From: a virus
IMG/VR virus record: IMGVR_UViG_3300045988_132703
DNA length: 64,000 nt
Strand: one strand, 5' to 3'
Part shown: in pieces, positions 26,094 through 42,110 of the stretch
How the letters are laid out: each line of letters opens with the position of its first letter
How positions within the stretch are numbered: the first letter of the stretch is position 1
The notes under the pieces: generated by a model
The model's database searches: none
What the model was told of the DNA's origin: nothing
What the model saw: only the letters and a program-made list of their open reading frames with translations
Made by a program: the position numbers and the translations under genes

Positions 26094-26122
26094 TTGACTT
26101 TTTTTAAAAATCGTGATATAAT
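26094..26122 (+). promoter_or_regulatory. early cassette promoter (tRNA operon)
   Basis: TTGACT-17-TATAAT, TGa extension. Confidence 0.7.
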
Positions 26123-26204
26123 ATTTATAGAGTTTGGGAATTGATTCCTACTCTTTTTATACATACCTCTTTCTTTTAGGGAGAAGCAATTCTCCCTTTA
26201 ATAT

Positions 26205-26288
26205 GCGACTGTGGCCCAGTGGACAAAGGCGGGTGCCTGCAAAGTACTTAATTTTTTATCGTTGGTTCAAATCCAACCAGTCGCTCCA
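26205..26288 (+). tRNA. tRNA-Cys (GCA), unusual 12-nt AT-rich variable region
   Basis: Acceptor GCGACTG/CAGTCGC; anticodon arm GGTGC-CTGCAAA-GTACT (two G.U); T arm GTTGG-TTCAAAT-CCAAC; encoded CCA. Confidence 0.7.
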
Positions 26289-26409
26289 GAACGGAGTTCC
26301 CTACTAGATTCCCAATGGGAATTGAACTTCACGGTTTGGTTGAGTTAGTCCGTCGTCCTCGGTATTGAGTAGACAATCAAGAGGGAAAGATACGAAAACT
26401 CTTTATTAT

Positions 26410-26485
26410 GCGCGAGTAGTCGAATGGCATAGACACTACGCTAAGGACGTAGGATTTGTGGGTTCAAATCCCACCTTGCGCACCA
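26410..26485 (+). tRNA. class I tRNA, anticodon AAG by canonical numbering (identity uncertain)
   Basis: Acceptor GCGCGAG/CTTGCGC, A73, CCA; anticodon arm CTACG-CTAAGGA-CGTAG; T arm GTGGG-TTCAAAT-CCCAC; 5-nt variable loop. Confidence 0.65.
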
Positions 26486-26503
26486 ATAGAAAGGAAAGTT
26501 GCT

Positions 26504-26734
26504 ATGGGCAAATTAAAAATGACCAAGATAGTTTATGGTCGGGCAATGGTTGGAACTGATGCTTATAAAAAGAATTTATCTAGTAAGCGTTCAAAGTGTA
26601 ATGACCAGAAGAGAAAACGAAACTATCGTTCAGCCACAATCAAAACCAATCTGACTTGGGAACAGAAATTGATTCGATGGTTTGAAAAAGTTGAGAAATG
26701 GTTTTTAGATTATTTTGAAAGGTTTTTCGATTGA
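26504..26734 (+). CDS. hypothetical basic protein
   Basis: ATG 26504 after GAAAGGAAAG; upstream part of track ORF 26456-26734 overlaps a tRNA. Confidence 0.5.
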   Translation: MGKLKMTKIVYGRAMVGTDAYKKNLSSKRSKCNDQKRKRNYRSATIKTNLTWEQKLIRWFEKVEKWFLDYFERFFD

Positions 26735-27024
26735 TGAAAATTTTGACTGCACCAGTTATTGATTATGGAGTTCTTGAGGACGAGCTAGTTGACGCTGGTA
26801 TTCTCAAGAGAGAAGATGTTGAAGAAGATTATTCATACATTCTCGGTTTGCTTTTTGCAGATAATTGGAGTTACGATTGTTATTTGAAACTTTATCTCAA
26901 TGACAAGCCTATTCCAAAGAATCTTGACATAAGTGCGACTGTTTATCTGAAAAAGTGCAATGAGATTTATGCTTATTTGCGCGAGAAGGCTCCAGGTTAT
27001 CCGTTCATTTTGATTGAAACTTAA
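26731..27024 (+). CDS. hypothetical protein
   Basis: Track ORF; overlapping start. Confidence 0.55.
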   Translation: MMKILTAPVIDYGVLEDELVDAGILKREDVEEDYSYILGLLFADNWSYDCYLKLYLNDKPIPKNLDISATVYLKKCNEIYAYLREKAPGYPFILIET

Positions 27025-27037
27025 AGAAAGGATTAAA

Positions 27038-27448
27038 ATGAGTAAGAAGAAAAAGAATACTCCTGTAAGTGATTGGGTCTATGACGACTTAATGGAATTT
27101 TACGAGTTTTGCTTTGGCGGCACCCACGTTTTTCGTTCAAACAAAGCTAAAAAGTACCTTTTTGAGATTCTTACTCACGATTCTAATTGGACTGTTGAAA
27201 ATGTTCATAATGAATATTATGTTCTTTATCACAATCCAGTTTATCAACCTCGTGCGAAAATTCATATTCAAGCAAAAGATACTAATTTGATTTGGCTTTT
27301 GTGGATTGCATATACGCATGATTTCTACAAGTATAACAAACTTCCTTTTGAAAAAGGAAAAGGCAAAGACTATTGGCGTTTCGTTGAAGATTTTAAACGT
27401 TATCTTACTTATAAAGGTCTTCATTGGACAGAAGATGACTTTCAATGA
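27038..27448 (+). CDS. hypothetical protein
   Basis: ATG 27038 after AAAGGA; track ORF 27014-27448. Confidence 0.55.
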   Translation: MSKKKKNTPVSDWVYDDLMEFYEFCFGGTHVFRSNKAKKYLFEILTHDSNWTVENVHNEYYVLYHNPVYQPRAKIHIQAKDTNLIWLLWIAYTHDFYKYNKLPFEKGKGKDYWRFVEDFKRYLTYKGLHWTEDDFQ

Positions 27449-27449
27449 T

Positions 27450-27478
27450 TTGACTTTTGATAGATAATATGCTATAAT
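27450..27478 (+). promoter_or_regulatory. early cassette promoter
   Basis: TTGACT-17-TATAAT, TGc extension. Confidence 0.7.
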
Positions 27479-27484
27479 ATTTAT

Positions 27485-27635
27485 AGAAAATGAGATTTAT
27501 TCGTAGATAAGAATTAAAAATCGCTAAAGACAATAATGTTGCTCTAATGTGGGAACGTGAAGGTTACGGTATATCCGATACTGTTAAACGAAATCCCTAT
27601 GAGCTTGCGTGAGATTGAAACTGCTCACCGAATGA
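27485..27635 (+). ncRNA. candidate promoter-driven non-coding transcript
   Basis: Full cassette promoter 27450-27478 is followed by only 6- to 20-codon ORFs until the next cassette. Confidence 0.3.
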
Positions 27636-27636
27636 A

Positions 27637-27665
27637 TTGACTTTTTATGATTTCTATGATATAAT
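27637..27665 (+). promoter_or_regulatory. early cassette promoter
   Basis: TTGACT-17-TATAAT, TGa extension. Confidence 0.7.
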
Positions 27666-27671
27666 ATTTAT

Positions 27672-27853
27672 AGAAAATGAAAGACAGAAGCAGCAAATAC
27701 TTCTAACAACTTGAACTTAAAATTCAAATATTGGTAAGAAGCTGTCTTGATGTGGGTTGAAATGAGATTCTAAGACGATTTCTGCAAACTTTTAATGTTT
27801 TGATTGAATTATTAGATGATAAAAACGAAAAAGTCGTCTTGATTTTTTATTAT
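27672..27853 (+). ncRNA. candidate leader or small RNA upstream of tRNA-Asn
   Basis: Cassette promoter 27637-27665, no ORF over 9 codons; paired segments AGACAG/CTGTCT and AAGACGA/TCGTCTT. Confidence 0.3.
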
Positions 27854-27928
27854 GGATGGTTCGTACAACGGTTAGTACAAGAGACTGTTAATCTCCTAAT
27901 GGGGTTTCGACTACCTCACCGTCCGCCA
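27854..27928 (+). tRNA. tRNA-Asn (GTT)
   Basis: Acceptor GGATGGT/ACCGTCC; D arm GTAC-AACGGTTA-GTAC; loop CTGTTAA; T arm GGGGT-TTCGACT-ACCTC; CCA. Confidence 0.8.
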
Positions 27929-27963
27929 AAAGCGATAACAGAACGCTTCTTAATATCCCATTG

Positions 27964-28027
27964 CCAATAGGGGAGCATTGAGTAGCTATCAATGAGATTA
28001 AGGTGCCTCCACACCGGCCTTATATTT
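27964..28027 (+). repeat. conserved structured leader upstream of GIY-YIG gene, copy 1
   Basis: CCAATAGGGGAGCATTGAgTaGCtATCAATGAGATTAAGGTgCcTCC..ACCGGCCTTATATTT; nested stems GGAG/CTCC and CATTGA/TCAATG. Confidence 0.7.
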
Positions 28028-28043
28028 AATTATTCTGGAGGGA

Positions 28044-28961
28044 ATGGTTATGAAAGTTATTTGCGGGATTTATAAAATTACTAATCAAGTTAATGGTAAA
28101 TGTTACATTGGACAGAGCGTAAATATCGCTCGTCGATGGAGAGACCATAAAAAGACAAGTTCTGATGCAAGCTATAATGCTTATGATAGTGTGTTGCATA
28201 AAGCATTTAGAAAATATGGAATAGAAAATTTTTCTTTTGAAGTATTAGAAGAATGTTCTCAAGAAAGTTTAAATGCTAAAGAAATTTATTGGATAAATTA
28301 TTTTAATTCAGATGATTCTTAGAGAGGATATAATTTAACTCCTGGTGGAGATAATGTTGGTTAGAAATGTCGAAAATTAACTGACGAGCAGCTTTAGGAA
28401 TTAAAGCGTCTTTTAAAAACTACATTAATATCTCAAACTGATTTAGCAAAGTAGTTTAATATTAGCCAAATGGCAGTTAGTGATATTAATAGAGGAATAA
28501 GTTATCCAGATTTAAATGAAGATTATCCTTTAAGAGATTCTAATGCAATTCGAGGTTGGAATTTGCATCCAGAGAAGAACGGATTAAAAACAGAATCAAA
28601 AGTTGATAAATCTAATAAGTCTAGTAAATCTGAAGAGTTTATTAAAAGTAAAGATAAAGATAAACCTTTTCCAAAAGTAAAAATTAAAAATATAAAAATT
28701 TGTCCTGTTTGTGGAAAGGAATACGATAGTAAAGCAAAAACTTGTTCTGTTAAATGCGGAAGAATTCGTGTTAAAAAAGTTAAAATTGTTCCTAAACGGA
28801 GTGCTTTAAAGTACTTAATTCGCAATTACTCGTTCGAATGGATTGGTCGTTAGTTTGGTGTAACTGGAAATGCAATAAAGAAATATTGTGATAAATTTGA
28901 TTTACCAAGAACTAAAAAAGAAATTAATTCTTACTCGAATGAAGAATGGAAAAAGATTTAA
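28044..28961 (+). CDS. GIY-YIG homing endonuclease (Seg/I-TevI-like) with Zn-ribbon and HTH tail
   Basis: CGIYKITNQVNGKCYIGQS..RWRDHK, GYNLTPGG; 5 in-frame TAG (28320, 28362, 28395, 28452, 28851) join track ORFs 28044-28322 and 28470-28853; TAA 28959. Confidence 0.8.
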
Positions 28962-28985
28962 AATTTGCCGGCTTGCCGGCTTTAT

Positions 28986-29060
28986 GCATCTGTAGTTCAA
29001 TGATAGAATAACAAACTTTTAATTTGTATGATGCCAGTTTGACTCTGACCAGATGCACCA
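28986..29060 (+). tRNA. tRNA-Lys (TTT)
   Basis: Acceptor GCATCTG/CAGATGC; anticodon arm ACAAA-CTTTTAA-TTTGT; T loop TTTGACT; CCA. Confidence 0.75.
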
Positions 29061-29121
29061 TTAGCTCGTCTATCATGTGTAGAAAGAGTCTCTGAAACCG
29101 TTTATACGGTTTCTATTTTAT

Positions 29122-29207
29122 CCCTCATTAGACCATAAGGATTGGGGCTGGACTGTAAATCCAGTGTGTTTTACGCCGGGATGGTTCGATACCATCATGA
29201 GGGACCA
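29122..29207 (+). tRNA. tRNA-Tyr (GTA), class II
   Basis: Acceptor CCCTCAT/ATGAGGG; anticodon arm CTGGA-CTGTAAA-TCCAG; long variable arm; T arm GATGG-TTCGATA-CCATC; CCA. Confidence 0.85.
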
Positions 29208-29230
29208 TTTATTTTAAGAAAGGATATATT

Positions 29231-29515
29231 ATGGACTTTTTTGTTGGAAATTTTGCTGACTGGTTCAATAGTTATGCTAGGAATAAGTTATTTCGTCTTT
29301 GGTATAAGGAGGATGAAAAACTTGGTCTGGATGATGGCTATGATGGAGTTTGTCAGTATGTTTATCTGCGACAAGCGATCAATCTTGGTAACGATTGGTT
29401 GATTGGTTATGCTGTATTTGATGAACGAGAAAAAGATAATATGTATCCTAGTTTGAATTGGGCTAGATTGAGTGAAATTGATTTGGCCTGGTACAAAGAT
29501 GATGAGGAAAAGTAA
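29231..29515 (+). CDS. hypothetical protein
   Basis: Track ORF between tRNA-Tyr and tRNA-Asp. Confidence 0.55.
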   Translation: MDFFVGNFADWFNSYARNKLFRLWYKEDEKLGLDDGYDGVCQYVYLRQAINLGNDWLIGYAVFDEREKDNMYPSLNWARLSEIDLAWYKDDEEK

Positions 29516-29530
29516 TTTTCCTCTTTATAA

Positions 29531-29614
29531 TGTCCTGTAGCGCAAATGGATAGAGCGCCACCCTGTCACGGTGGAGGTATATTATTGCCGGTTCGAACCC
29601 GGTCAGGACAGCCA
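29531..29614 (+). tRNA. tRNA-Asp (GTC), unusual 12-nt AT-rich variable region
   Basis: Acceptor TGTCCTG/CAGGACA; anticodon arm CCACC-CTGTCAC-GGTGG; T arm GCCGG-TTCGAAC-CCGGT; CCA. Confidence 0.75.
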
Positions 29615-29904
29615 GATGCAATTCGGAAGGATTGCGAGTCTTGCGCCTAGGAGATAAGGCGTCAAATTGGATGATTTGTGACCTAAGCAGGTCGTTAAAA
29701 GGCTCAGTTTGGTAAAGACTGTAAAAAATTACCAGCCGAGAGAGGATGGATTTGAGGTAAACTACCACCGGCGCTTAGCGATATGTGGCTTAGTCATTTG
29801 TATTCGGCTTAATACAAAGAAAACGAAAGTAACCTTGAACGCATAGGAGTTCTAAAACTCTATGGACTAGACGTGAGGGATAGTCTGAAAACTCCCTCTT
29901 ATAT
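29615..29904 (+). ncRNA. structured non-coding spacer between tRNA-Asp and tRNA-Gly
   Basis: 290 nt with no plausible ORF; many local hairpins (GCGCC/GGCGT, GACC/GGTC, TGGTAA/TTACCA, GAGGG/CCCTC). Confidence 0.3.
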
Positions 29905-29979
29905 GTGCGAGTGGTATAACGACAATTATCCTTGCCTTCCAAGCAAGGGACGAGGGTTTAACTCCCTTCTCGCACACCA
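29905..29979 (+). tRNA. tRNA-Gly (TCC)
   Basis: Acceptor GTGCGAG/CTCGCAC; anticodon arm CTTGC-CTTCCAA-GCAAG; T arm GAGGG-TTTAACT-CCCTT; CCA; D loop lacks GG. Confidence 0.65.
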
Positions 29980-30464
29980 TTAATCAAAGTTTCTAATTAG
30001 GTTCAATCCTCCCAGAGGATTATAGCTGAAGTGGAGCAATGCCTGGGCTAGACACGCATTGTACGGTACACTGAAACACCAAATAGACCGCGGTATAATA
30101 GGTGTTATAATGCCGAATACTTAATTAAAGTAAAAGAACACCAATCTTTGATTAAATTGGGCTGGAGTTTATCTCCTTGGTCCACCAATCCAGTGGAATT
30201 TCTACTGGCGGCTTTATGACAGGCACGTAAGAAATCTGTCCCTCTGAATAGATACTTGCATAACAGCAAACTTTTCTAGTTGGAAGAATAAAAGTATTAC
30301 TTGATAATACTTTGATCGCTCGCGCATTCAAACTAGAGGTATCTAGTAATAAAAGAGGTCTGGAATGAATGTGTGAGTGTAGATTCTCAGTAATTACAGA
30401 ATGAGGATCGGTTCTTCACCGCCTAAGAGTGAACCCTCGCGGGAGTGGGTATCTCCCGTTTCAT
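29980..30464 (+). ncRNA. structured non-coding region downstream of tRNA-Gly
   Basis: 485 nt with no plausible ORF; composition less AT-rich than flanks; hairpins e.g. AATCCTC-CCA-GAGGATT. Confidence 0.3.
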
Positions 30465-30537
30465 GTCTCCTGAGCTGGGAACTCACGGATGTTTCATAAG
30501 CAACCTATGCACAGTTCAATTCTGTGAGGAGACACCA
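30465..30537 (+). tRNA. tRNA-like element, possible CAT anticodon (non-canonical D region)
   Basis: Acceptor GTCTCCT/AGGAGAC, A73, CCA; T arm CACAG-TTCAATT-CTGTG; candidate anticodon arm GATGT-TTCATAA-GCAAC; D arm does not fold canonically. Confidence 0.35.
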
Positions 30538-30587
30538 TTTACAGTTATAGCGGTGGCTGTAACAGAAATTTTTATCGTTTTAACAAA

Positions 30588-30617
30588 GGCCTCGGAGTAA
30601 AATCTGAGGTCTTTTTT
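30588..30617 (+). terminator. terminator fused to cassette promoter
   Basis: GGCCTCGGA-gtaaaa-TCTGAGGTC then TTTTTT. Confidence 0.7.
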
Positions 30618-30618
30618 A

Positions 30619-30647
30619 TTGACTTTAAGACAAATTTATGATATAAT
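30619..30647 (+). promoter_or_regulatory. early cassette promoter
   Basis: TTGACT-17-TATAAT, TGa extension. Confidence 0.7.
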
Positions 30648-30678
30648 ATTTATAGAAATCAAGAAAGGAAGTTGGAGA

Positions 30679-30912
30679 ATGACAGTTAAAGATTTGCTCA
30701 ATGTACTGTGCAAGTATCAGTGGATTGAGATTGCTGGCGATTTTTATAGTGAAAGTCCTCATTTCACGGGAACTGTAAAAGATTTAATGGGCGAAGATGA
30801 ATATGAGTTCCTTTGCGCGCAGAAAGTTAATGGAATATTTTCTGAAGCTGAAGATAAAAGCCATTATATTCTTGTTTATTATAATGATTCTGAGTTAGGA
30901 CAGGTGTGGTAA
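30679..30912 (+). CDS. hypothetical protein
   Basis: ATG 30679 after AAAGGAAGTTGGAG of the cassette leader. Confidence 0.55.
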   Translation: MTVKDLLNVLCKYQWIEIAGDFYSESPHFTGTVKDLMGEDEYEFLCAQKVNGIFSEAEDKSHYILVYYNDSELGQVW

Positions 30913-31130
30913 TGATTTTTAATGGAAAAGAAGTTGGAGAACTTCATCATCTAACCTTTCGCCATAGTAATTTTCCTAATAAGCAAAATTTTGCTCCAAC
31001 TGATTTATTTGGCGTAAAGAAATTCTTACGCGATCATCCAAAAGTTAATGTGCTTGATTTTTCGCAATTCTGCTCGGATAACACAGTCTATACCACTGTC
31101 TGGTATACTGTCCCGCGCAATCAAAATTAA
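30912..31130 (+). CDS. hypothetical protein
   Basis: TAATG overlap; track ORF 30906-31130. Confidence 0.5.
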   Translation: MIFNGKEVGELHHLTFRHSNFPNKQNFAPTDLFGVKKFLRDHPKVNVLDFSQFCSDNTVYTTVWYTVPRNQN

Positions 31131-31149
31131 ACTCAAAAGGAGGAGCATT

Positions 31150-31341
31150 ATGGAAATGTTTGCTTGGACTTTGTATTACACTTATACCAAGGATGGTAAA
31201 TCTACTCGACGAGTTTCTACCATTAATGCCCCTACTCTTGGACGAGCATTTCAGATCTTACGTCATTATATGATTAAAAATTCTGACGAATATATTACTG
31301 ATCTTTGCGCAGAGCGCAAGAAAATTAAGAAAGAGGATTAA
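31150..31341 (+). CDS. hypothetical protein
   Basis: AAAGGAGGAG then ATG 31150. Confidence 0.55.
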   Translation: MEMFAWTLYYTYTKDGKSTRRVSTINAPTLGRAFQILRHYMIKNSDEYITDLCAERKKIKKED

Positions 31342-31342
31342 A

Positions 31343-31852
31343 GTGAAAGAATTTTTAAAAACGGCAATAGCAGTTATTTTGTCAGCTATAATTATTTTTG
31401 GATGCTGTTTTTATACTTATGCTGACAAAGAATTGCCTGGTAAGGAAAAACAAATTACTGTCACGTCAGAATATAATGACAATGTGACTATTAAGAAGTT
31501 GGCTGAGCAATATCGAGGAGCATGGCAAGAGGGAACAGATTTTTCTCCTATCGCGCGGCGAATGGATTTAAAATTCGAAGGCAAAATTCAGGCTGACCAA
31601 ATTTCTGTCTCTGAAGATGGACGATTGATTGCTTCTACCAAAGATTTTTATTGGGACTATGGTAAAATCCCTGGATTTTATGCTATCTGTAATACCGAAA
31701 GTGATCCTTCTCCCTATGGCGCAAAGATTGTAATTTATCTCAATAGCACTAATCAAAAAAAGTTCAGTACAGGGCAGACTATTAAATTTAAAGCTGACTT
31801 TTGGAGGATGGATGGACGTACAATGGTTTTAACGAATGGAGTACTTGAATAA
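31343..31852 (+). CDS. membrane-anchored or secreted protein
   Basis: GTG start; N-terminal hydrophobic segment AIAVILSAIIIFGCCFY. Confidence 0.55.
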   Translation: MKEFLKTAIAVILSAIIIFGCCFYTYADKELPGKEKQITVTSEYNDNVTIKKLAEQYRGAWQEGTDFSPIARRMDLKFEGKIQADQISVSEDGRLIASTKDFYWDYGKIPGFYAICNTESDPSPYGAKIVIYLNSTNQKKFSTGQTIKFKADFWRMDGRTMVLTNGVLE

Positions 31853-32481
31853 TGCTTTTGCTTTTGATTGTCCACATTATAATTTTTATTATAATGGGTT
31901 TTATTTCTTCTTTGTGCGGCGTAACATATGACGAAGATGAACTTATAGGTATGATATGTCCTTTTATTGGAATTGCAACAACTATTTATGCTATTCAAAC
32001 AGCAATAGAAAAGAAATTAGATAAATATGATTTGATTGATGTTGATTTTAAAGATGTAAATGATAATATTATTCGAGAAGATGACAGGTCGATTCATATA
32101 GACCATAAAGTATGCTTGTCTTACAAACAGTTTGTCGATTTTTATTCTATTAATCCAGCGCGTTGGAACATTGTCAAGCAAACATATCCTGAAAGGCGCT
32201 ATTTGAGATTTAAAGACGGCGAAACTTGGTACTGGGTTTATTTTAAAACTGCTAAGGAATATAGAGCCGCAGTAAAATATTATTATATGCGAGAAGAAGT
32301 AAGAAATGGTCCTCGCGCAGTTAATTATAACCCGCAAGAAAAAGAAAAACTCGACAAAGATACGGCTGCTTTACTTCGTTGTGTTCAAGCTGACATCAAT
32401 AAAATTAAATTCCAAGCAGAATCTGAGATCAATGAAGCTACCGATGGTATCAAAAAAATTTCAGAACGTCTAAATAATTAA
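31852..32481 (+). CDS. membrane protein
   Basis: Two N-terminal hydrophobic helices; TAATG overlap. Confidence 0.55.
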   Translation: MLLLLIVHIIIFIIMGFISSLCGVTYDEDELIGMICPFIGIATTIYAIQTAIEKKLDKYDLIDVDFKDVNDNIIREDDRSIHIDHKVCLSYKQFVDFYSINPARWNIVKQTYPERRYLRFKDGETWYWVYFKTAKEYRAAVKYYYMREEVRNGPRAVNYNPQEKEKLDKDTAALLRCVQADINKIKFQAESEINEATDGIKKISERLNN

Positions 32482-32488
32482 TTTTAAG

Positions 32489-32519
32489 TCAATAGGTATC
32501 TAGCCTATTGACTTTTTTA
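32489..32519 (+). terminator. terminator overlapping -35
   Basis: TCAATAGG-tatctag-CCTATTGA then CTTTTTT. Confidence 0.55.
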
Positions 32520-32536
32520 TTTATATATGGTATAAT
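32508..32536 (+). promoter_or_regulatory. early cassette promoter
   Basis: TTGACT-17-TATAAT, TGg extension; -35 overlaps the terminator stem. Confidence 0.7.
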
Positions 32537-32569
32537 ATTTATAGAAAATGAGAAAGGAAGAATGATGAG

Positions 32570-33394
32570 ATGATAATGAAAGAACTTGCTACTTTTGATG
32601 AAAAAGTTTTTAATCAGATGATGCGCCATGTCAAGTTTGCAGAATCAAAAGGTTATGATGTTATTTTGGCGTCAGTTTATGGTTCTCAGAATTATGCTCT
32701 TGAGACTAAGGAATCTGATGTTGATTCTTATTTGATTGTCATGCCTTCTCTTGAAGATTTAGCTTTGAATCGTAAACCTATTTCAAAAGAATTGATGTAC
32801 GTTGACGAAAAGGGTGTTCCTAATGATGAACACGTTGTTATCAAAGATTTTCGCGTTTTCGTTGAAGCATTGATGAATGCAGATTTTCATGCTCTTGAAG
32901 TTGTAAGTTCTAAATATACTACTACCATTCGTTGGACTGATTTAGATGAAAAAGTAAATCCTTTCGAGGATATGGATTGTTTTACTGCCGTCTTACCTAA
33001 ATTTTATTGGCGCGTAGTGAATTGTTTTGAGAGCGCGCTTAAGAGTAGAAAGTTGGAATGTTTAGATTGGAATAAGAAAGGCGACCGCAAAACTTTGGTT
33101 GATATTGTTTTGCATTATTTCGTTTTTCTTCATGCTTTTGAGCGCGATAAATATCCTTATTCGACTTATTCTAAAAATTTGCGTGACACTCTTCTTGAGA
33201 TTAAAAATGGTTCAATGTCTAAAGAAGATGCTCTTGCGATGTTTGATTTGAATACCATGCTCTACAATGTGCGCGACCGCTGGGAACATGACCAGCCCGC
33301 AGATAAAGGAAAAACTGAAAACCAGCTTCATAAAGAGTTAAATCAAATGTTAATTGAACAATTTGAAGTTAAATTTGAGGAGCAATGTTTATGA
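32570..33394 (+). CDS. Pol-beta-superfamily nucleotidyltransferase (RNA-repair-associated Nuc-transf/RlaP-like, tentative)
   Basis: VYGSQNYALETKESDVDSYLIV = G[SG]-x(n)-D.D nucleotidyltransferase signature near the N-terminus; about 270 aa. Confidence 0.6.
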   Translation: MIMKELATFDEKVFNQMMRHVKFAESKGYDVILASVYGSQNYALETKESDVDSYLIVMPSLEDLALNRKPISKELMYVDEKGVPNDEHVVIKDFRVFVEALMNADFHALEVVSSKYTTTIRWTDLDEKVNPFEDMDCFTAVLPKFYWRVVNCFESALKSRKLECLDWNKKGDRKTLVDIVLHYFVFLHAFERDKYPYSTYSKNLRDTLLEIKNGSMSKEDALAMFDLNTMLYNVRDRWEHDQPADKGKTENQLHKELNQMLIEQFEVKFEEQCL

Positions 33395-33771
33395 ATCATC
33401 CTCGTACTCGTGCAGAACGTCGAATCGCGAAGAAAAAAGAGTTCAATAGAAAGTATTTTTTGAGCCAGAATGCTGACTATCCAGCACCTTATTTTTTAAC
33501 TTATGCTCGGAACAAAGGGCGGCGTCGGACTTTACATACTAAACTTCCTGTTGATTATGATTTTAAAGTACCTGGAGAATATAGAAATTATCATTCTTGG
33601 CGCGGAAAGTACAGAGTTGAAAAAATTTATTTTCGTCAGCTTGGTCATGCTAGTCGTTATCATTATTTCAAGAGGAAAGCAAATCAAGCCGTACGTAGGA
33701 ACAAGAATTTTTCGACTCGGAAAAGTAATGATTATCGTAGAGTTTATGAATATGCTTGGATGGTGGATTAA
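33385..33771 (+). CDS. highly basic protein
   Basis: Track ORF; R/K/Y-rich throughout. Confidence 0.5.
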   Translation: MFMNHPRTRAERRIAKKKEFNRKYFLSQNADYPAPYFLTYARNKGRRRTLHTKLPVDYDFKVPGEYRNYHSWRGKYRVEKIYFRQLGHASRYHYFKRKANQAVRRNKNFSTRKSNDYRRVYEYAWMVD

Positions 33772-34067
33772 TGGATAATTATATTGTAAGTGTTTCACTT
33801 CCCGCTGCGCCGGCAATGACTCCTCAAGGACCGATTTTGCCAACTGACAGCTTGGTAACTTTCTTTTGTTCTTGCGGCGGGCGCATTGATTTTAATGATA
33901 TGAATATTGCTAGTGAAGCAATTAATGAGGATAGGGTCATTTGTCCGCAATGTCACCAAAAGCATAAAAGAAAAGATTATATGTGGCTATTTGGCGGAAA
34001 AGGGCAAATCATCGCTTTGCCGCAATCAATGTATAAAGAGGTAGAAAATGAAAATGAAGAAGGATAA
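33771..34067 (+). CDS. zinc-ribbon protein
   Basis: CSCGG...CPQC; TAATG overlap. Confidence 0.5.
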   Translation: MDNYIVSVSLPAAPAMTPQGPILPTDSLVTFFCSCGGRIDFNDMNIASEAINEDRVICPQCHQKHKRKDYMWLFGGKGQIIALPQSMYKEVENENEEG

Positions 34068-34245
34068 TAATCTTCAGTTGACTCCTGATGGAGAAAGATT
34101 TAAAAATTATTTGCAAGATATGTTGAACGGTGAACAGTATAGAGTAGCCCTTTTTGAAGAAAATATTAAAGAGTTGGGCGACAAAATGGGACTTGAGCGT
34201 ATGGATATGATTAAGGCTTTTCTGGTAGTAATGGAGGAACTTTAA
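34048..34245 (+). CDS. hypothetical protein
   Basis: Track ORF. Confidence 0.5.
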   Translation: MKMKKDNNLQLTPDGERFKNYLQDMLNGEQYRVALFEENIKELGDKMGLERMDMIKAFLVVMEEL

Positions 34246-34634
34246 TGGCTTATTTGATTTTGTTTTCGATGCTGTTTCTTCATTTGATTGCTGATTATAA
34301 CCTTCAAGGCATTCTCGCGCAATTCAAGCAAAAGGAATGGTGGAAGAAAAATTATCCTCAGCCAAAATATAAACACGACTGGATAATTGCCCTTATTGAA
34401 CACTCTTTTATGTGGAGTTTTTTAGTTTACCTACCTGTGTTTGCGTATATGGGTATGACTAGCGATTGGGAAACAGCTAGTTATTTATTCATTTATTGCA
34501 TTATATTAAATACTGGAATTCATGCGGTGGTAGACAATGAGAAAGCCAATGATGGAAGTCTTAGTTTGTTTGGTGACCAGTTTTTACATTTTGTGCAGAT
34601 TTTTGCAACTTGGCTATGCCTTTTGATTAAATGA
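34245..34634 (+). CDS. DUF3307-like membrane protein
   Basis: FLHLIADYNLQG motif and several hydrophobic helices. Confidence 0.55.
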   Translation: MAYLILFSMLFLHLIADYNLQGILAQFKQKEWWKKNYPQPKYKHDWIIALIEHSFMWSFLVYLPVFAYMGMTSDWETASYLFIYCIILNTGIHAVVDNEKANDGSLSLFGDQFLHFVQIFATWLCLLIK

Positions 34635-34663
34635 TTTACTTTTCTCCAATCTTATGCTATAAT
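34635..34663 (+). promoter_or_regulatory. early cassette promoter (variant -35 TTTACT)
   Basis: TTTACT-17-TATAAT, TGc extension. Confidence 0.6.
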
Positions 34664-34674
34664 TATTATAGAAA

Positions 34675-34995
34675 ATGAGGAAAGGAAATGAGATTATGAG
34701 TGAAAAGAATTATGAGACTAAATGGCATACTGTTCGTGAATCTTATCTTCGAATGCTTATTGGTAAAGCTATGAAATACGACATTCTTATGGATGAAGAT
34801 TCTAAAATTGAAATCAATAGCGAAGATTTCTATGGTGAAATTTATCGAGGTCTAACTGGTGAGGAACTCACTATTCCCAATGATCAAGCTCACTTTATCA
34901 AGCGCGTAAATTCCGTCAACAGCGAAATCATCAAGCAGACTGATGAGACTCTTGAAAAACTTGATCTTGCCGTTAAGAAACATGGATTTGAATAA
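34675..34995 (+). CDS. hypothetical protein
   Basis: Track ORF directly after cassette promoter 34635. Confidence 0.55.
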   Translation: MRKGNEIMSEKNYETKWHTVRESYLRMLIGKAMKYDILMDEDSKIEINSEDFYGEIYRGLTGEELTIPNDQAHFIKRVNSVNSEIIKQTDETLEKLDLAVKKHGFE

Positions 34996-35024
34996 TTGAC
35001 TTTTCTTCAAATCTATGCTATAAT
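34996..35024 (+). promoter_or_regulatory. early cassette promoter (tRNA/HNH unit)
   Basis: TTGACT-17-TATAAT, TGc extension. Confidence 0.7.
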
Positions 35025-35031
35025 ATTTATA

Positions 35032-35506
35032 GAAAGTTAAGGAAAGATTACTTAATTTTTACGACAGTTTTGTTGGCAGACACTTCACTGAGTAAAAATG
35101 TGAGCTGCTAGGTTTACGAGAGGGGTCACAGGCTACCAGAAATGGAGCTGAACCGAGCCAAACCTCCTAACGCAGAAGTTGCGTTCATAAATTACTTGCA
35201 ATCTTAGCTTAAAGTGACAGGGCGCTAAAAGATTGTTTTGCCACTCTTAATTGAGTGGTAAGGTTCACTATAATTGATACCTCCACGCGGTGTGAACTGG
35301 ACAATCTGATGAACTTGGAAGTCAGATTGACGAAAATCAATAGACATGAAAGACGAAATGAATACAAGCTCTCTTTCGTCGGTTAAATTGCACCAGCTTC
35401 GATGGTAGAATGAATTAACGTTCTGATAATTGTCGGCGCAATGCGCATCTACGGCACGGGTAAAGACGTCCCCTGCAAAAGCAATTAGACCATGTCGTTT
35501 TATTAT
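35032..35506 (+). ncRNA. promoter-driven non-coding region upstream of tRNA-Glu-like gene
   Basis: Starts at cassette promoter 34996-35024; no + strand ORF; only a - strand ORF (35225-35632) that overlaps the tRNA-like gene. Confidence 0.3.
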
Positions 35507-35583
35507 GACCCCTTCGTCTAAAGGTGAGGATAGGAGATTTTCAATCTCCCGATGCATTGGGTTCAAGTCCCGCAGGGGGGCCA
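35507..35583 (+). tRNA. tRNA-Glu (TTC)-like, irregular acceptor end
   Basis: GACCCCTTCGTCTAAAGG.. resembles bacterial tRNA-Glu 5' half; anticodon arm GGAGA-TTTTCAA-TCTCC; T loop TTCAAGT; only 5 of 7 acceptor pairs. Confidence 0.5.
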
Positions 35584-35606
35584 CCACTTTTAATTGAGGA
35601 TAACTT

Positions 35607-36344
35607 ATGGATTCTTTGGTAGATAAATACACTTAGCAAGAGTTAGAATAGATAGTTTAGCTATCTACATCTTATAAAGATTTAGCTCAAAAGTTAGGTT
35701 ATACTGCATTTTCCAGTGATTTAAAATATTTTTTAGAAAATAAATTTTCTGATTTTGATACTTCGCATTTTCAAACAAGAGTTTCAAAAGAAAAGCGGGT
35801 AGAAAGAACAGAGGAAAATGTTTTTATAGAAGATTCTACAGCTTCTCAGCAAACTTTAAGAAGATGGTATCGAAAAGGTAATTATACTCCTTATTAGTGT
35901 TCTATTTGCCATCTTGAACCAATCTGGCAAGGTAAGCCATTGACTTTAATCCTTGACCATATTAATGGCATCAATAATGACGACAGATTAGAAAATCTTC
36001 GATGGGTTTGCCCAAATTGTAACCAATAGCTTGAAACAACTAATGGTAAGAATCGAAAAAATTATTCTAAAAAATATTATTGCATTGATTGTGGAAAAGA
36101 ACTTTCTGGGGATTTCCAAAGATGTAAAAGTTGCGCTGGGAAAATTAGAATTGTTCCTGTTACAGAAATGAGTGTTTCAAGAGATGAATTGAAATCTTTA
36201 ATCCGAAATAAAACTTTTGTTGAGATAGGAAAAGATTTTGGAGTTTCCGATAATGCTGTTCGAAAATGGTGTGATAAGTTAAATTTGCCAAGAACCAAAT
36301 CTTTAATTAAAACCTATTCTGATGAAGAATGGGATAAGCTATGA
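35607..36344 (+). CDS. HNH homing endonuclease with Zn-ribbon and HTH tail
   Basis: LDHINGINNDDRLENLRWVCPNCN; GAGGA then ATG 35607; 5 in-frame TAG (35634, 35649, 35658, 35895, 36027); no standard-code ORF in the track. Confidence 0.75.
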
Positions 36345-36358
36345 AAGTAGCTTTATTT

Positions 36359-36435
36359 ACTCCGATAGTTTAATTGGTGAAAATTTTCGACTGATAATCG
36401 AAAGAGTGCCTGTTCGATTCAGGCTCGGAGTACCA
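36359..36435 (+). tRNA. tRNA-Ile (GAT)
   Basis: Acceptor ACTCCGA/TCGGAGT; anticodon arm TTCGA-CTGATAA-TCGAA; T arm GCCTG-TTCGATT-CAGGC; CCA. Confidence 0.8.
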
Positions 36436-36568
36436 GTTGCGTGACAGTCGTAGAACTCCTATCGGCTGTCTAAAGAACTAGGGTAAGGCTTATGAGTGGA
36501 GTTCGCTCATAAGACGCGCGAGAAAACGTTGCCCAGAGTTTTGCTTCAAAGTCACTCGCGCATTATAG
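36436..36568 (+). ncRNA. structured spacer between tRNA-Ile and the class II tRNA
   Basis: Stems GACAG/CTGTC, CTTATGAG/CTCATAAG, GCGCGAG/CTCGCGC. Confidence 0.3.
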
Positions 36569-36660
36569 CGGCCACTGGAAGAAGCGGTTAAATTCGCCTG
36601 GCCCTCAACCAGGAGTTCTCGTAAGAGATATTGCCAGTTCAAATCTGGCGTGGTCGACCA
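36569..36660 (+). tRNA. class II tRNA with non-canonical anticodon loop CCCTCAA (CTC by numbering; Leu-CAA if the U-turn is shifted)
   Basis: Acceptor CGGCCAC/GTGGTCG, A73, CCA; 3-bp D stem; anticodon stem CCTGG/CCAGG; variable arm TCTC-GTAA-GAGA; T arm GCCAG-TTCAAAT-CTGGC. Confidence 0.6.
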
Positions 36661-36842
36661 AAGTATTGATACCTTCAAGCCTCAAGAAACAGTTTAATAG
36701 AATACTAGTTGCCTATTGAATTAAAGTATTGAGAAACTATAAATCAAAAGATATGTTGTGGAACGGGAATGATACTAACCGGAAAGCGTAAATCGTATTA
36801 GAGAAAAATGGTCTGGAACTCTTTAAATTATCGGACTACCGT

Positions 36843-36928
36843 GCCGGAGTCGTATAGTGGTCGATTACAACGGTTTTGTAAGCCGTCAGCATATGCTCGC
36901 GGGAGTCCGAATCTCCCCTCCGGCTCCA
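36843..36928 (+). tRNA. tRNA-Thr (TGT) with 14-nt variable arm
   Basis: Acceptor GCCGGAG/CTCCGGC; anticodon arm ACGGT-TTTGTAA-GCCGT; variable CAGCATATGCTCGC; T arm GGGAG-TCCGAAT-CTCCC; CCA. Confidence 0.6.
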
Positions 36929-36932
36929 TTAT

Positions 36933-37007
36933 GCGTTTGTAGTTCAATGGAAGAATCGCAGACTCTTAATCTGTCAGATGCAGGTTCAAGTCCTGTCAAA
37001 CGCACCA
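36933..37007 (+). tRNA. tRNA-Lys (CTT)
   Basis: Acceptor GCGTTTG/CAAACGC; anticodon arm GCAGA-CTCTTAA-TCTGT; T arm GCAGG-TTCAAGT-CCTGT; CCA. Confidence 0.8.
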
Positions 37008-37135
37008 TTTAAAGACCATCACAGCATCTGAAATTGGCTTATAACCCGTTGATTCCAGTTCGAATCTGGTGGTTCTATCTTAAAAAGAGGAACTTAGCTC
37101 AATGGTAGAGCAGCGTATTGTTGGTCTTGTTTTAT

Positions 37136-37212
37136 GCGCTCATGGCTCAATTGGAAAGAGTACTCGGCTACGAACCGAGAGATTAAGAGTTCAAGTCTCT
37201 TTGAGCGTACCA
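37136..37212 (+). tRNA. tRNA-Arg (ACG)
   Basis: Acceptor GCGCTCA/TGAGCGT; anticodon arm CTCGG-CTACGAA-CCGAG; T arm AAGAG-TTCAAGT-CTCTT; CCA. Confidence 0.85.
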
Positions 37213-37286
37213 CTTGTAATTTCTACGAATCTTATACAAATCTCCTTGTCGTTCGCGGCTCGACGCTAATAAAGCCGCACTCCTAT

Positions 37287-37363
37287 GCGGCTGTAATTCA
37301 GTTGGATAGAATATCGGACTTCTAATCCGAAAGTCAAGAGTTTGAGTCTCTTCAGCCGCCCCA
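37287..37363 (+). tRNA. tRNA-Arg (TCT)
   Basis: Acceptor GCGGCTG/CAGCCGC; anticodon arm TCGGA-CTTCTAA-TCCGA; T arm AAGAG-TTTGAGT-CTCTT; CCA. Confidence 0.85.
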
Positions 37364-37427
37364 ATAGGGGAGCATTGATTCGCGATCAATGAGATTAAGG
37401 TACTCCTAATACCGGCCTTATATTTTA
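37361..37427 (+). repeat. conserved structured leader upstream of GIY-YIG gene, copy 2
   Basis: Same about 64-nt sequence as 27964-28027 with loop differences; begins at the CCA of tRNA-Arg(TCT). Confidence 0.7.
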
Positions 37428-37450
37428 TTTATCATTTAGGAGTGATAGAT

Positions 37451-38296
37451 ATGCCTATTTGTGGTATTTATAAAATTACTAATTAGATCAATGGGAAATG
37501 TTATATTGGACAAAGTATAAACATTAAACAAAGATGGAGAGCGCATAAAACAAAAGCCTTTAGTCCCTCTAATTCATAGTATGAATGTCCTTTATATAGA
37601 GCCATTCGAAAATATGGCTTAGAGAATTTTTCTTTTGAGGTTTTAGAAGAATGCCCAGCAGAAGAATTGAATCAAAAAGAATAGCAGAATGTTTCTTTCT
37701 TTTAGTCTAATAATCCATCTTTTGGTTATAACTTAACTCCAGGCGGCGATGCCTAGGGAGATAAATGTAGAAAATTAACTGAATTACAAGTTAAAGAAGT
37801 TCAAGATTTGCTACTTTTTAGTTTATTATCTCAAGAAGAAATAAGTAAAAAATTTGGAGTTACTCAAAGAACTATCAGTTCAATAAATACTGGAGAATGT
37901 TATTTTGATCCAAAAATAAATTACCCAATCCGTTCTCACCAAGAAGGAGCGAGAGTCTCCTTTTTGAAAAAGGGACAAGAAATTTCTCCAGACAATTATA
38001 TAACAAAATTATCTGATTCTTTATTTAAAAAATGTGAATATTGTGGTAAAAATATTTAGCATTCTGACAATAAACGCTTTTGTAGTTAGAAGTGCGCACA
38101 AATGGCAAGTCGAATTGTAGAAAGACCAAGTAGAGAAATTTTAAAAAGTGAAATTCGAGAGTAGCCTTTTACGTCTTTAGGTAAAAAATATAGTGTCTCA
38201 GATAATGCAGTTAGGCGCTGGTGTAAAACTTATAATTTACCATTTAAAAAATCAGAAATTAAATCCTATTCAGATGAGCAATGGGATAAAATATAA
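37451..38296 (+). CDS. GIY-YIG homing endonuclease with Zn-ribbon and HTH tail
   Basis: CGIYKITN[TAG]INGKCYIGQS..RWRAHK, GYNLTPGG; 8 in-frame TAG; track ORF 37808-38059 is an internal piece; TAA 38294. Confidence 0.75.
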
Positions 38297-38332
38297 ATTC
38301 TAAGTTTCTGGCTTTGATAAAGCCAGATTTTA

Positions 38333-38408
38333 TGCGCGGATAGTTCAATTGGATAGAACACGTTCCTCCTAAGAATGAAATGTGGTTTCAAGTACCGCTC
38401 GGCGTACC
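38333..38408 (+). tRNA. tRNA-Arg (CCT)
   Basis: Acceptor GCGCGGA/TCGGCGT (one G/G mismatch); anticodon arm CGTTC-CTCCTAA-GAATG; T arm GTGGT-TTCAAGT-ACCGC; CCA. Confidence 0.7.
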
Positions 38409-38447
38409 ACGATTAACTAATAAGTGTCTCCTTTCTTTTCTCATCTT

Positions 38448-38479
38448 GGAGCCTAGTCTGTAATGGACTAGGCTCTTTT
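38448..38479 (+). terminator. terminator fused to cassette promoter
   Basis: GAGCCTAGTC-tgtaatg-GACTAGGCTC then TTTTC. Confidence 0.7.
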
Positions 38480-38482
38480 CTA

Positions 38483-38511
38483 TTGACTTATGCGAAAAGA
38501 TATGATATAAT
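38483..38511 (+). promoter_or_regulatory. early cassette promoter
   Basis: TTGACT-17-TATAAT, TGa extension. Confidence 0.7.
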
Positions 38512-38540
38512 ATTTATAGTAAATGAAAAGGAGAAATAAA

Positions 38541-38795
38541 ATGACCATTCGAGAATTTGTTGAAAAATGCTCAGTTGTCACTGAGATTGGCATTACCAAC
38601 TGCGGCGATAAAGATGCCATTTATCCCTACGAAATTGAAGACTTTGATGCTATTGGTTTCAATAGACAAATTCTTGAGGGTAAGCGCGGAAAGTATGTTT
38701 GTGATAATGGTATCTTGGATAAAGAAGTTTGTGCTTTTCGAGATACAATGGATTTGAACGATCCATTTCGCGGTATTATTGTTTTTTATAAATAA
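38541..38795 (+). CDS. hypothetical protein
   Basis: ATG 38541 after AAAGGAGAAATAAA. Confidence 0.55.
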   Translation: MTIREFVEKCSVVTEIGITNCGDKDAIYPYEIEDFDAIGFNRQILEGKRGKYVCDNGILDKEVCAFRDTMDLNDPFRGIIVFYK

Positions 38796-38801
38796 GAAAG
38801 G

Positions 38802-39137
38802 ATGAAGATAATGAAACCTATTAAATGGAGTGGTGATAATTTTCTTGAAGCTTTTGATAGCGGCTATAAATTTTCAGAATTTGAGCTATCTGAGCTTGCT
38901 TATGAAAATAGTATTGAAACTACCTATGGAGAGAATGAACGTTGGGTTCGACCCGTAACAACGATTATAGAATTTAATGGTCGTTATTTTCAAATTGATT
39001 GGTGTGAAGGATTGACAGAAATACAGCCTAATGAATTTTTTGACTAGCCGTTTGAAGTAAAAAAGGAATCGCATGAAGAGACTATTACTGTTACTGTAAC
39101 TAATTGGATTCCTCTGGAGAAGGATAAAAATAATTAA
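38802..39137 (+). CDS. hypothetical protein (TAG read-through extension)
   Basis: Track ORF ends at TAG 39045; frame stays open for 29 more codons (PFEVKKESHEETITVTVTNWIPLEKDKNN) to TAA 39135. Confidence 0.5.
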
Positions 39138-39161
39138 GCCCGTTTATAACTTTAAAGCTAA

Positions 39162-39190
39162 TTGACTTTTGAACGAAATTATGCTATAAT
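39162..39190 (+). promoter_or_regulatory. early cassette promoter
   Basis: TTGACT-17-TATAAT, TGc extension. Confidence 0.7.
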
Positions 39191-39220
39191 TATTATAGAA
39201 AATGAGAAAGGGGATTAGAT

Positions 39221-39933: not shown

Positions 39934-39948
39934 GAAAGCGAGTAAGCA

Positions 39949-42068: not shown

Positions 42069-42078
42069 TTAAAATCTA

Positions 42079-42108: not shown

Positions 42109-42110
42109 TA

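Follow-up and report, generated by a model that had tools for sequence, protein, structure and literature searches.

A tRNA island with atypical tRNA genes in a TAG-to-Gln phage, and an amber suppressor found upstream of it in close relatives

The IMG/VR virus record IMGVR_UViG_3300045988_132703 provides a stretch of 64,000 nucleotides (nt), here called the window, in which an island of tRNA genes (26205-38409) lies within the genome of a phage with many in-frame TAG codons. A first, sequence-only reading of this island noticed several odd tRNAs and no tRNA with a CUA anticodon. We suggest that the island is one of three tRNA clusters of a phage that reads TAG as Gln, that its amber suppressor is located upstream of the window, and that the odd genes are working variants of tRNAs; we put the probability of this explanation at about 85%. 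Together, the three clusters would hold about 31 tRNA genes for all 20 amino acids, plus one amber suppressor. Because the IMG/VR contigs of related phages are 175.6-179.3 kb long, the window is about one third of a genome of roughly 176-179 kb. The phage is widespread, as look-ups of exact and near-exact protein matches indicated, and a Logan contig of ERR414483 is identical to window positions 27647-43394. The closest genome in GenBank is that of phage phAss-1 (OQ749652), with a major capsid protein 37.5% identical, and a megablast of the island against the phages in GenBank gave zero matches.

That the genome requires decoding of TAG, as the sequence-only reading had stated, was clear from its open reading frames (ORFs). 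Read-through of TAG lifts the number of ORFs of at least 400 amino acids in the window from 3 to 7, and 62 in-frame TAGs were counted in 18 read-through ORFs. The ORFs on the + strand at 321-23560, which are tail-fiber-like with collagen repeats, contain 1-11 in-frame TAGs apiece; the genes at 24-46 kb have none, bar three homing-endonuclease genes (5, 5 and 8 TAGs). TAG means Gln in this phage because it exchanges with CAA or CAG in close relatives: such exchanges accounted for 21 of 25 TAG codon swaps (CAA 13, CAG 8, other codons 4). The share of TAG among Gln codons is 15% in the late genes and 41% in the endonuclease genes. Two of the tail-fiber-like ORFs (16639-19176 and 21545-23560) contain long collagen-like G-X-Y repeats (GIQ, GPQ) with 3-4 in-frame TAGs each, and an ORF of 145 amino acids with 6 in-frame TAGs (48126-48563) is situated outside the late block.

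The island itself has no suppressor, in agreement with the sequence-only reading. A CUA anticodon was not found in the window by ARAGORN at its default, at -ps90 or at -ps80 with introns, the last of which returned 129 calls, nearly all of them spurious. The Rfam tRNA search across 24-40 kb (E<=10) was also negative for a CUA tRNA, and BLAST found no match in the window to the suppressor sequences of the relatives. A hand-written stem-loop scan for CTA in loops of 6-9 nt produced many matches, none with a T-arm downstream.

Because a tRNA group with two of the three suppressor genes (Sup-CTA) adjoins nrdD in phAss-1, and the left end of the window falls in the region of tail fibers and nucleotide metabolism, the search was extended to the region just upstream of the window. 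Nine relatives were fetched there, with shared DNA or protein 91-100% identical to that of the window, and two further tRNA clusters were present in all nine relatives whose sequence reaches this region. The second cluster (loci L023 and L024) precedes nrdD and consists of Leu-TAA, Ala-TGC, a gene for a protein of 496 amino acids, Phe, Ile-TAT, Pro, Met, Val and Leu-TAG. The third (L025-L032) has His, Leu-CAA, Gln-TTG, Gly-GCC, Ser-TGA and Trp-CCA, and then a tRNA(CTA). This tRNA(CTA), detected by ARAGORN, is 76 nt long and identical in sequence in the eight IMG/VR relatives (8/8), with variable flanks. The ninth relative, a Logan-assembled one, carries a second suppressor allele with a different, fully canonical body and the same loop; the gene length ranges from 74 to 76 nt. 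Overlapping loci of the same contigs place the suppressor 14.1-15.0 kb upstream of window position 1. Its loop reads CTCTAAC, compared to CTTTGAC in the phage tRNA-Gln(TTG), with which it has the variable region ATGT and the T-loop TTCGATT in common, and in eight relatives it shows U1-A72 and G73. The gene scored 31.5 bits with the Rfam tRNA model (E 2e-4), has its own promoter (TTGACT-17-TATACT), followed by a hairpin. Of the two places proposed for the suppressor in the sequence-only reading, a position outside the window was therefore the right one, as a tRNA(CTA) exists 14-15 kb before the window in 9/9 relatives. From these relatives we infer that the window's own genome carries the suppressor as well. 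The region to the right of the window (L001-L013) contained no tRNAs and just the start of the structural module.

The other place proposed, an atypical gene of the island, was not supported. The loops CCCTCAA and CTAAGGA do contain or nearly contain CTA-like strings, the corresponding loop of the relatives, CTCTCAA, is one base off CTCTAAA, and phAss-1 has an 88-nt Sup-CTA with a long arm; one of the two island tRNAs might on these grounds be the real TAG decoder, by unusual loop geometry or an edited anticodon. However, every relative retains the AAG and CUC anticodon loops, the latter on two different bodies, the codons CTT and GAG behave as Leu and Glu in counts of codon swaps, and C33 of the CUC tRNA is private to the window strain. 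In addition, C36 is unable to pair with U1 of UAG, and in phAss-1 a CTCTCAA tRNA coexists with three Sup-CTA genes. Since a regular tRNA(CUA) was found in all nine relatives, TAG decoding can be explained without an exotic decoder and without the atypical island genes, and we regard such a decoder as extremely improbable. In relatives, a tRNA called '???(cc)' or '(ccta)' at the site of Arg-CCT (L014 13819-13895; L015-L019) was considered as a suppressor with an 8-nt loop and was rejected. The Arg-CCU at that site has a 7-nt loop, one bulged base in the anticodon stem and a compensated pair, and CTCCTAA is a normal loop of Arg-CCU, which counts against reading it as a suppressor.

Alternatively, the window strain might have lost the suppressor and rely on a co-infecting relative or on read-through by the host. 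An exact look-up of a protein from the left end of the window gave no match, and among the TAG-recoded relatives of phAss-1 there are some in which no Sup-CTA was detected (PMC10607447). Against such a loss, the suppressor is present in 9/9 relatives, its complete identity in eight of them despite variable flanks implies strong constraint, and the window retains its 62 in-frame TAGs; we think the loss very improbable. A suppressor-less recoded phage would have been a notable find. The missing suppressor appears instead to have an ordinary answer, in that it simply lies outside the 64-kb window, and this is a caution for window-based scans of large phage genomes.

Gut phages with TAG-to-Gln recoding (code 15) and suppressor tRNAs have been published before; phAss-1, for example, has 36 tRNA genes and three Sup-CTA, two of them beside nrdD (PMC10607447). 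It and the phage of the window are alike in the concentration of in-frame TAGs in structural genes, a large tRNA complement, a Sup-CTA with a Gln-like loop and a tRNA group adjoining nrdD. They also have in common short-arm Leu tRNAs (74-80 nt in phAss-1) and a CTCTCAA tRNA, which in phAss-1 stands beside a Sup-CTA. They differ in that their major capsid proteins are just 37.5% identical and their gene orders are not the same. The phage of the window is about 40 kb larger, and it has one suppressor, set apart from the main island by late genes, in place of three. A TAG-to-Gln phage with a near-complete tRNA set is thus already known as a type, and what deserves attention here is the short-arm tRNA-Leu, the added arms, the compensated tertiary pairs and the endonuclease-linked swaps.

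ARAGORN at default settings found 14 tRNA genes at 26205-38409, all on the + strand, and no further tRNA genes in the rest of the window. The Glu-TTC-like gene, the CAT-loop element, the endonuclease genes, the YrlA-like RNA, the ribozyme candidate with its upstream leader, the promoters and the terminators, all described below, are on the + strand too. The 14 genes are, in order, Cys-GCA (26205-26288), AAG (26410-26485), Asn-GTT (27854-27928), Lys-TTT (28986-29060), Tyr-GTA (29122-29207), Asp-GTC (29531-29614) and Gly-TCC (29905-29979), followed by Ile-GAT (36359-36435), a 92-nt CTC gene (36569-36660), Thr-TGT (36843-36928), Lys-CTT (36933-37007), Arg-ACG (37136-37212), Arg-TCT (37287-37363) and Arg-CCT (38334-38409), the last with the canonical loop CTCCTAA. 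All 14 exceed the gathering score of the Rfam tRNA model (29 bits). Twelve of them scored 49-69 bits in the search of the whole window (Cys 51.3, AAG 60.1), and the class II genes, searched alone, reached 42.2 bits (CTC) and 32.8 bits (Tyr). At -ps90 the ARAGORN total was 16, the extras being a Glu-TTC-like gene (35508-35583), found by ARAGORN at this setting only and scoring 30.3 bits with Rfam in the whole-window search, and a Met-CAT-like element (30464-30533). The cloverleaves that had been folded by hand were thus recovered, 14 at default and the Glu-TTC-like gene at -ps90; the CAT-loop element was missing from that list. As folded, this tRNA-like element occupies 30464-30537 and has a perfect 7-bp acceptor stem, an ACCA end and a reduced D-arm, and it is 97-99% conserved in all relatives. 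CCA is encoded by almost all island tRNAs. The identical set of island anticodons occurs in 6 relatives, and the orthologous tRNA genes are 97-100% identical, compared to 84-93% for neighboring ORFs. The amino-acid identities given to these tRNAs, here and below, are predictions from their sequences. The programs therefore bring to light no suppressor in the island and score the odd genes as tRNAs, yet the oddities noticed at first sight are real.

The tRNA at 26410-26485 is indeed a 76-nt class I tRNA with the loop CTAAGGA and the anticodon AAG, as the sequence-only reading had described it. In the ARAGORN fold it has A73, G37, a 3-bp D-stem, the D-loop GAATGGCATA and the variable region GATTT. 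Five relatives have an identical anticodon arm, and a compensated change has occurred at one pair of the acceptor stem (5:68). Bacterial leucyl-tRNA synthetase (LeuRS) recognizes A73 and the tertiary elements A15:U48 and G18G19 of the D- and T-loops (PMC9976931). All of these are present in the AAG tRNA, and A20a is also consistent with a tRNA-Leu. The long variable arm, which tRNA-Leu possesses in all organisms bar animal mitochondria (PMC9976931), is absent; the variable region is 5 nt long in a gene of 76 nt. The long arm is dispensable for the LeuRS of E. coli (PMC9976931), and the Leu-CAA (78 nt) and Leu-TAG (77 nt) genes of the relatives likewise have short arms, so that Leu-TAA is the only class II tRNA-Leu. 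In the phage, CTT makes up 26-31% of the Leu codons and swaps mainly with CTC between the window and its relatives. The AAG tRNA is most likely a tRNA-Leu, one of three short-arm Leu genes in the lineage, and would read CUU and CUC. Genes for tRNA-Leu(AAG) are typical of Streptococcaceae and Lactobacillaceae, in which TadA makes inosine 34 (I34) and AAG is deaminated to IAG (PMC13249217). The phage gene resembles these bacterial tRNAs in the combination of AAG with G37 and in CUU being a major Leu codon, and differs from them by the lack of a long variable arm. By analogy, a Leu gene of the AAG type hints at the host of the phage, which is probably a Firmicute.

The tRNA-Gly(TCC) and tRNA-Lys(TTT) lack the D-loop GG and C56, as had been seen in the first reading, and their T-loops read TTT for TTC. 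In both tRNAs position 19 is A instead of G and position 56 is U instead of C; the Gly allele of one relative (L017) has G19 and C56. Among 117 distinct tRNA sequences of the phage group, 110 contain GG with C56 and 4 contain G-A with U56, 1 has GG with U56, and 2 are without GG and have atypical T-loops. A19 was always paired with U56 (4/4). The elbow pair 19:56 would therefore be retained as A:U, which argues for the function of the Gly and Lys-UUU tRNAs. The long variable regions of the Cys, Asp and Thr tRNAs were confirmed as well, at 11-12 nt (A/U-rich), 12 nt and about 14 nt with a 3-bp stem, respectively. The Cys insertion is conserved (it occurs in 4 relatives), the Asp allele is private to the window strain, and Thr occurs among the relatives in a long-arm and a normal version. 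Some relatives have, in addition, a long-arm Asn (88 nt) and Ile-UAU (93 nt). We assume that such extended variable regions are tolerated. The class II tRNA-Tyr(GTA) is itself atypical in its weak D-stem, and this D-arm is conserved across the relatives.

The gene at 36569-36660 is a class II tRNA whose loop CCCTCAA has C33, exactly as first noticed; its body is 92 nt long and includes a variable stem of 4 bp. All relatives have the loop CTCTCAA with U33. Two of them have a 78-nt class I body, which shares the acceptor stem and loop of the class II CUC tRNA. The acceptor stem comprises C1-G72, G2-C71, G3.U70 and C4-G69, with A73. GAG makes up 32-39% of the Glu codons, and it is a Glu codon in this phage because it swaps mostly with GAA (79 of about 115 events). 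The CUC tRNA is most likely a second tRNA-Glu, which would read GAG, judging by its anticodon and these codon swaps. Allo-tRNAs are also class II tRNAs with anticodons outside Leu and Ser. Similarly, the nev-tRNAs of nematodes (PMC3333845) are class II tRNAs with non-Leu/Ser anticodons, like the long-arm tRNA here with its CUC anticodon of a class I family. The phage case differs from them in that the acceptor stem and loop also occur on a class I body in some relatives, and that GAG shows no sign of a non-Glu reading in the codon swaps. The tRNA-Glu(UUC) gene of the window strain (35508-35583) is degenerate; aligned with the intact gene of the relatives it has two 2-nt insertions and is probably impaired.

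Several observations weigh against our explanation. The suppressor of the eight relatives is not fully canonical, as its T-stem has a 1-nt bulge in the Rfam alignment, and an Rfam search of a 13.5-kb stretch at gathering settings missed it. Over the first 3 kb of the window, identity with the nine relatives is about 92%, and the suppressor of this strain is deduced from them. In the window strain both Glu tRNAs look impaired, the CUC one by C33 and the UUC one by its two insertions. Furthermore, the body of the CUC tRNA is not Glu-like by the rules of E. coli; it is not class I, and its acceptor and D-helix are not those of a Glu-type body. Instead, it carries a near-complete bacterial identity set for Ala (G2-C71, G3.U70, A73; PMC9976931), from which G4-C69 is absent, the pair being C4-G69.

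This set of elements raises the idea that alanyl-tRNA synthetase (AlaRS) charges the CUC tRNA through G3.U70 and so places Ala at GAG, as a deliberate mistranslation. The elements occur in both types of CUC body, and AlaRS is blind to the anticodon with G3.U70 as its main determinant (PMC9976931). However, GAG exchanges overwhelmingly with GAA and not with GCN, and G.U pairs are frequent in the acceptor stems of these tRNAs. One acceptor stem is common to both body types, and G3.U70 therefore counts once as evidence. The CUC tRNA of phAss-1 has G2.U71 and U3-A70 instead. Moreover, the D-loop AAGCGGTTAA of the phage tRNA resembles what we take to be the D-loop of the Bacillus tRNA-Glu. We give some charging by AlaRS via G2-C71, G3.U70 and A73 a small chance, and deliberate mistranslation of GAG seems to us a very slim prospect.

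It might also be argued that the odd genes are decaying pseudogenes and that part of the island is junk which recombination and active endonucleases have left behind. The Glu-TTC gene of the window, with two insertions and 30 bits, would fit such decay, as would the private change to C33 of a nearly universal U in the CUC tRNA and the weak D-stem of Tyr. However, the Cys insertion, the AAG arm, the Tyr D-arm and the Thr arm are conserved across relatives, and changes are compensated at A19:U56 and in the AAG acceptor (5:68). There are also two full CUC bodies, both well paired, and the tRNA genes are better conserved than the neighboring ORFs by the figures given above. Decay of the odd genes in general is in our opinion unlikely, and we continue to regard them as working variants.

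Unrelated tRNA bodies with the same anticodon and conserved flanks were found among the relatives for Asp, Gly, Asn, Thr, Lys, Ile, Arg-ACG, Arg-CCT and the suppressor; the Asn alleles differ by such swapping, and the relatives have another Arg-CCT body than the window. It appears that tRNA bodies are exchanged as cassettes while positions and anticodons stay fixed, and this would often go together with the insertion of free-standing homing endonucleases (GIY-YIG or HNH) at the 3' ends of tRNAs. The island contains a GIY-YIG gene at 28044-28961 (5 in-frame TAGs; PHROG 7168, E 2e-36), another at 37451-38296 (8 in-frame TAGs; PHROG 7168, E 1e-38) and an HNH gene at 35607-36344 (5 in-frame TAGs; PHROG 10822, E 1e-41). 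The HNH gene is absent from this site in the relatives. Homology with them breaks in the 3' third of tRNA-Glu and returns exactly at the CCA of tRNA-Ile, which indicates that the HNH gene came with the new Ile allele, unique to the window strain. The GIY-YIG genes share a conserved leader starting right after the CCA of a tRNA. It is a repeated structured element (CCAATAGGGGAGCATTGA...TCAATGAGATTAAGG...CCGGCCTTATAT) at 27964-28025 and 37361-37423, before both genes; the relatives have this motif after the CCA of other tRNAs. The genes have the features of free-standing homing endonucleases, namely a domain of the GIY-YIG or HNH type, a distribution that varies among close relatives, and replaced flanks. 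From these patterns, the endonucleases may be a cause of the diversity of tRNA bodies. Nowhere in the window are TAGs denser than in these three genes (21.7 per 1000 codons), which need the suppressor for their translation although they are located in operons of the early type.

The tRNA region of phage T4 reportedly harbors a GIY-YIG homing endonuclease, SegB, as Brok-Volchanskaya and colleagues are said to have described in 2008. The island is similar in having free-standing GIY-YIG genes inside a phage tRNA cluster, whose presence varies among related phages and with which neighboring tRNA alleles are replaced. It differs from the T4 region in that there are three endonuclease genes, one of them HNH, and that these genes are themselves TAG-recoded, at the density given above.

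The peculiarities of the island could be joined in one broader picture, which we consider a tentative possibility that is rather unlikely in its full extent. The phage lineage would have remodelled the architecture of its tRNAs and kept the anticodons fixed. Three of its four tRNA-Leu isoacceptors would have lost the long variable arm, while Cys, Asp, Thr, Asn, Ile-UAU and Glu-CUC would have gained long variable regions or arms, and whole bodies would have been swapped as cassettes between strains. The bodies may diversify to escape homing endonucleases, which attack the tRNA genes, or host nucleases, which attack the tRNAs, and would still be charged by the host synthetases. The island may also include a pair of a Ro60-like protein and a Y RNA-like molecule, for which the evidence is presented below. 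Of interest in any case are tRNA-Leu genes that naturally have short arms in a bacterial system, variable arms added to class I tRNAs, the clean covariation of A19 with U56, and tRNA alleles exchanged along with TAG-recoded homing endonucleases. Such odd tRNAs could help to define the true requirements of host synthetases and processing enzymes.

Two tRNA-like remnants had been reported in the sequence-only reading, at 37012-37077 and 37088-37130. The tRNA-like pieces are present (16.6 and 14.5 bits); they are not remnants and belong to one element, 37012-37130. It begins with the 5' strand AAGACCA, followed by a T-arm, a closed acceptor-like hairpin, 'TA' with a canonical D-arm and the 3' strand TGGTCTT, which pairs with the 5' strand as a closing stem. 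The relatives contain a second variant, in which the sequences of the T-arm and hairpin differ and the pairing is kept. The Rfam model of YrlA (RF02553) aligns with the T-arm, hairpin and D-arm at 23.4-24.8 bits (37012-37130 at 23.4 bits; E 0.0032 locally) and does not reach its gathering score of 69, and the D-arm UAGCUCAAUGGUAGAGC is near the YrlA consensus. We conclude that this is one conserved permuted tRNA-like RNA, which by its sequence and predicted pairing resembles the YrlA Y RNA. In one relative, the YrlA-like RNA is followed by roughly 110 additional nt (L018 16499-16607), which contain another T-arm-like hairpin (AACCGTTCGATTCGGTT) and may be a second Y-like RNA.

YrlA is a tRNA-like bacterial Y RNA that partners with Ro60/Rsr, a known pairing (PMC4201824). 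The 496-amino-acid protein of the second cluster, encoded outside the window (L023 1333-2823), belongs to DUF2828/DUF7788. Its AlphaFold2 model has a predicted local distance difference test (pLDDT) score of 89.8, and the best Foldseek matches were full-length Ro60/TROVE proteins (E 5e-10 to 1e-7), a Thermus phage Ro60 among them. A sequence search of the DUF2828 protein against the PDB found nothing, and the likeness to Ro60 comes from the fold comparison only. The phage thus resembles the YrlA/Ro60 system in the order of T-arm, closed acceptor-like hairpin and D-arm, in the pairing of the 5' and 3' ends, and in that the phage relatives encode a Ro60-like protein. It differs from the system in that this gene is DUF2828/DUF7788 and not Pfam TROVE, and in its position, since a YrlA gene is expected next to the Ro60/Rsr gene and the Ro60-like gene is about 43 kb away from the RNA, outside the window. 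On the strength of the modelled fold, a phage pair of Ro60 and Y RNA may be split between two tRNA clusters.

A second RNA of interest, in the leader of the tRNA unit from Glu to Arg, is a candidate for a self-cleaving ribozyme of the hepatitis delta virus (HDV)-like type at 35262-35345. Three HDV-like Rfam families aligned there at identical coordinates, all below gathering (27.6 against 50, 25.0 against 44 and 19.4 against 37 bits). By hand and in the covariance-model alignments we read a P1 of 7 bp with G1.U37, P1.1, P2, P3, an L3 of UCCACGC, an 8-bp P4 and C in J4/2, and the nested helices also appear in the minimum-free-energy fold. The candidate is 97-100% conserved with a single one-sided change in P4, which is too little variation for support from covariation. 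In theta ribozymes the cleavage site is at most 5 nt from the 3' end of a tRNA (PMC10879173). Here, ARAGORN and Rfam found no tRNA ending at 35261, and theta ribozymes directly after island tRNAs were not found. The candidate is similar to the HDV-like and theta ribozymes of gut phages (PMC10879173; RF00094, RF02682) in the nested double pseudoknot, G1.U37, the L3 sequence and C in J4/2, as well as in its setting, a tRNA operon whose phage is TAG-recoded and encodes an RNA ligase. It differs from them in that the next tRNA is 163 nt downstream of its 3' end, that the island tRNAs encode CCA, that its P4 is long and that every score is sub-gathering. The YrlA-like RNA, the Ro60-like protein and the HDV-like candidate tie the island to recent work on RNA processing in recoded gut phages.

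The candidate is flanked by conserved non-coding RNA at 35034-35261 and 35346-35507 (94-98% identity). The upstream piece, a leader that fills the interval from a promoter to the candidate, is 94-96% identical in relatives and exceeds most neighboring genes in this respect. Should the candidate cleave, a hairpin carrying a cyclic phosphate would form the end of this piece. Near the island there are also genes for an RNA ligase (PF09414) at 42857-43555 and a nucleotidyltransferase-like protein (PHROG 388) at 32570-33394, which may have a role in tRNA repair or maturation.

The island is divided into units by seven near-consensus promoters and three terminators. The promoter at 26094-26122 (TTGACT-17-TGnTATAAT) drives the unit of Cys and Leu-AAG, and its sister copies start at 27450, 27637, 30619, 32508, 34996 and 38483; all seven match at 11 of 12 positions with TG and are on the + strand. 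For the -10 motif TATAATATTTATAGA, the window has 13 occurrences, compared to 0.04 expected. The phage promoter motif is concentrated in the known island, and its use as a probe for further clusters was therefore abandoned. Intrinsic terminators close the unit from Asn to Gly (30585-30614) and that from Glu to Arg (38448-38476). The island tRNAs would be transcribed from these strong phage promoters in two long units and would supplement the decoding of the host.

Between the tRNAs there are long non-coding spacers at 29615-29904, 29980-30463, 36436-36568 and 36661-36842. Some are as conserved as nearby protein genes or more so, and the two around the CUC tRNA are 90-96% identical. By analogy with the stable RNAs of the T4 tRNA region, the spacers may be stable RNAs as well. 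Finally, nearly every tRNA is preceded by a short hairpin (for example at 26160-26204, 29094-29121, 29864-29904 and 38307-38333) and then by TTTAT or TTATAT at the mature 5' end, and this arrangement may be a processing signal.

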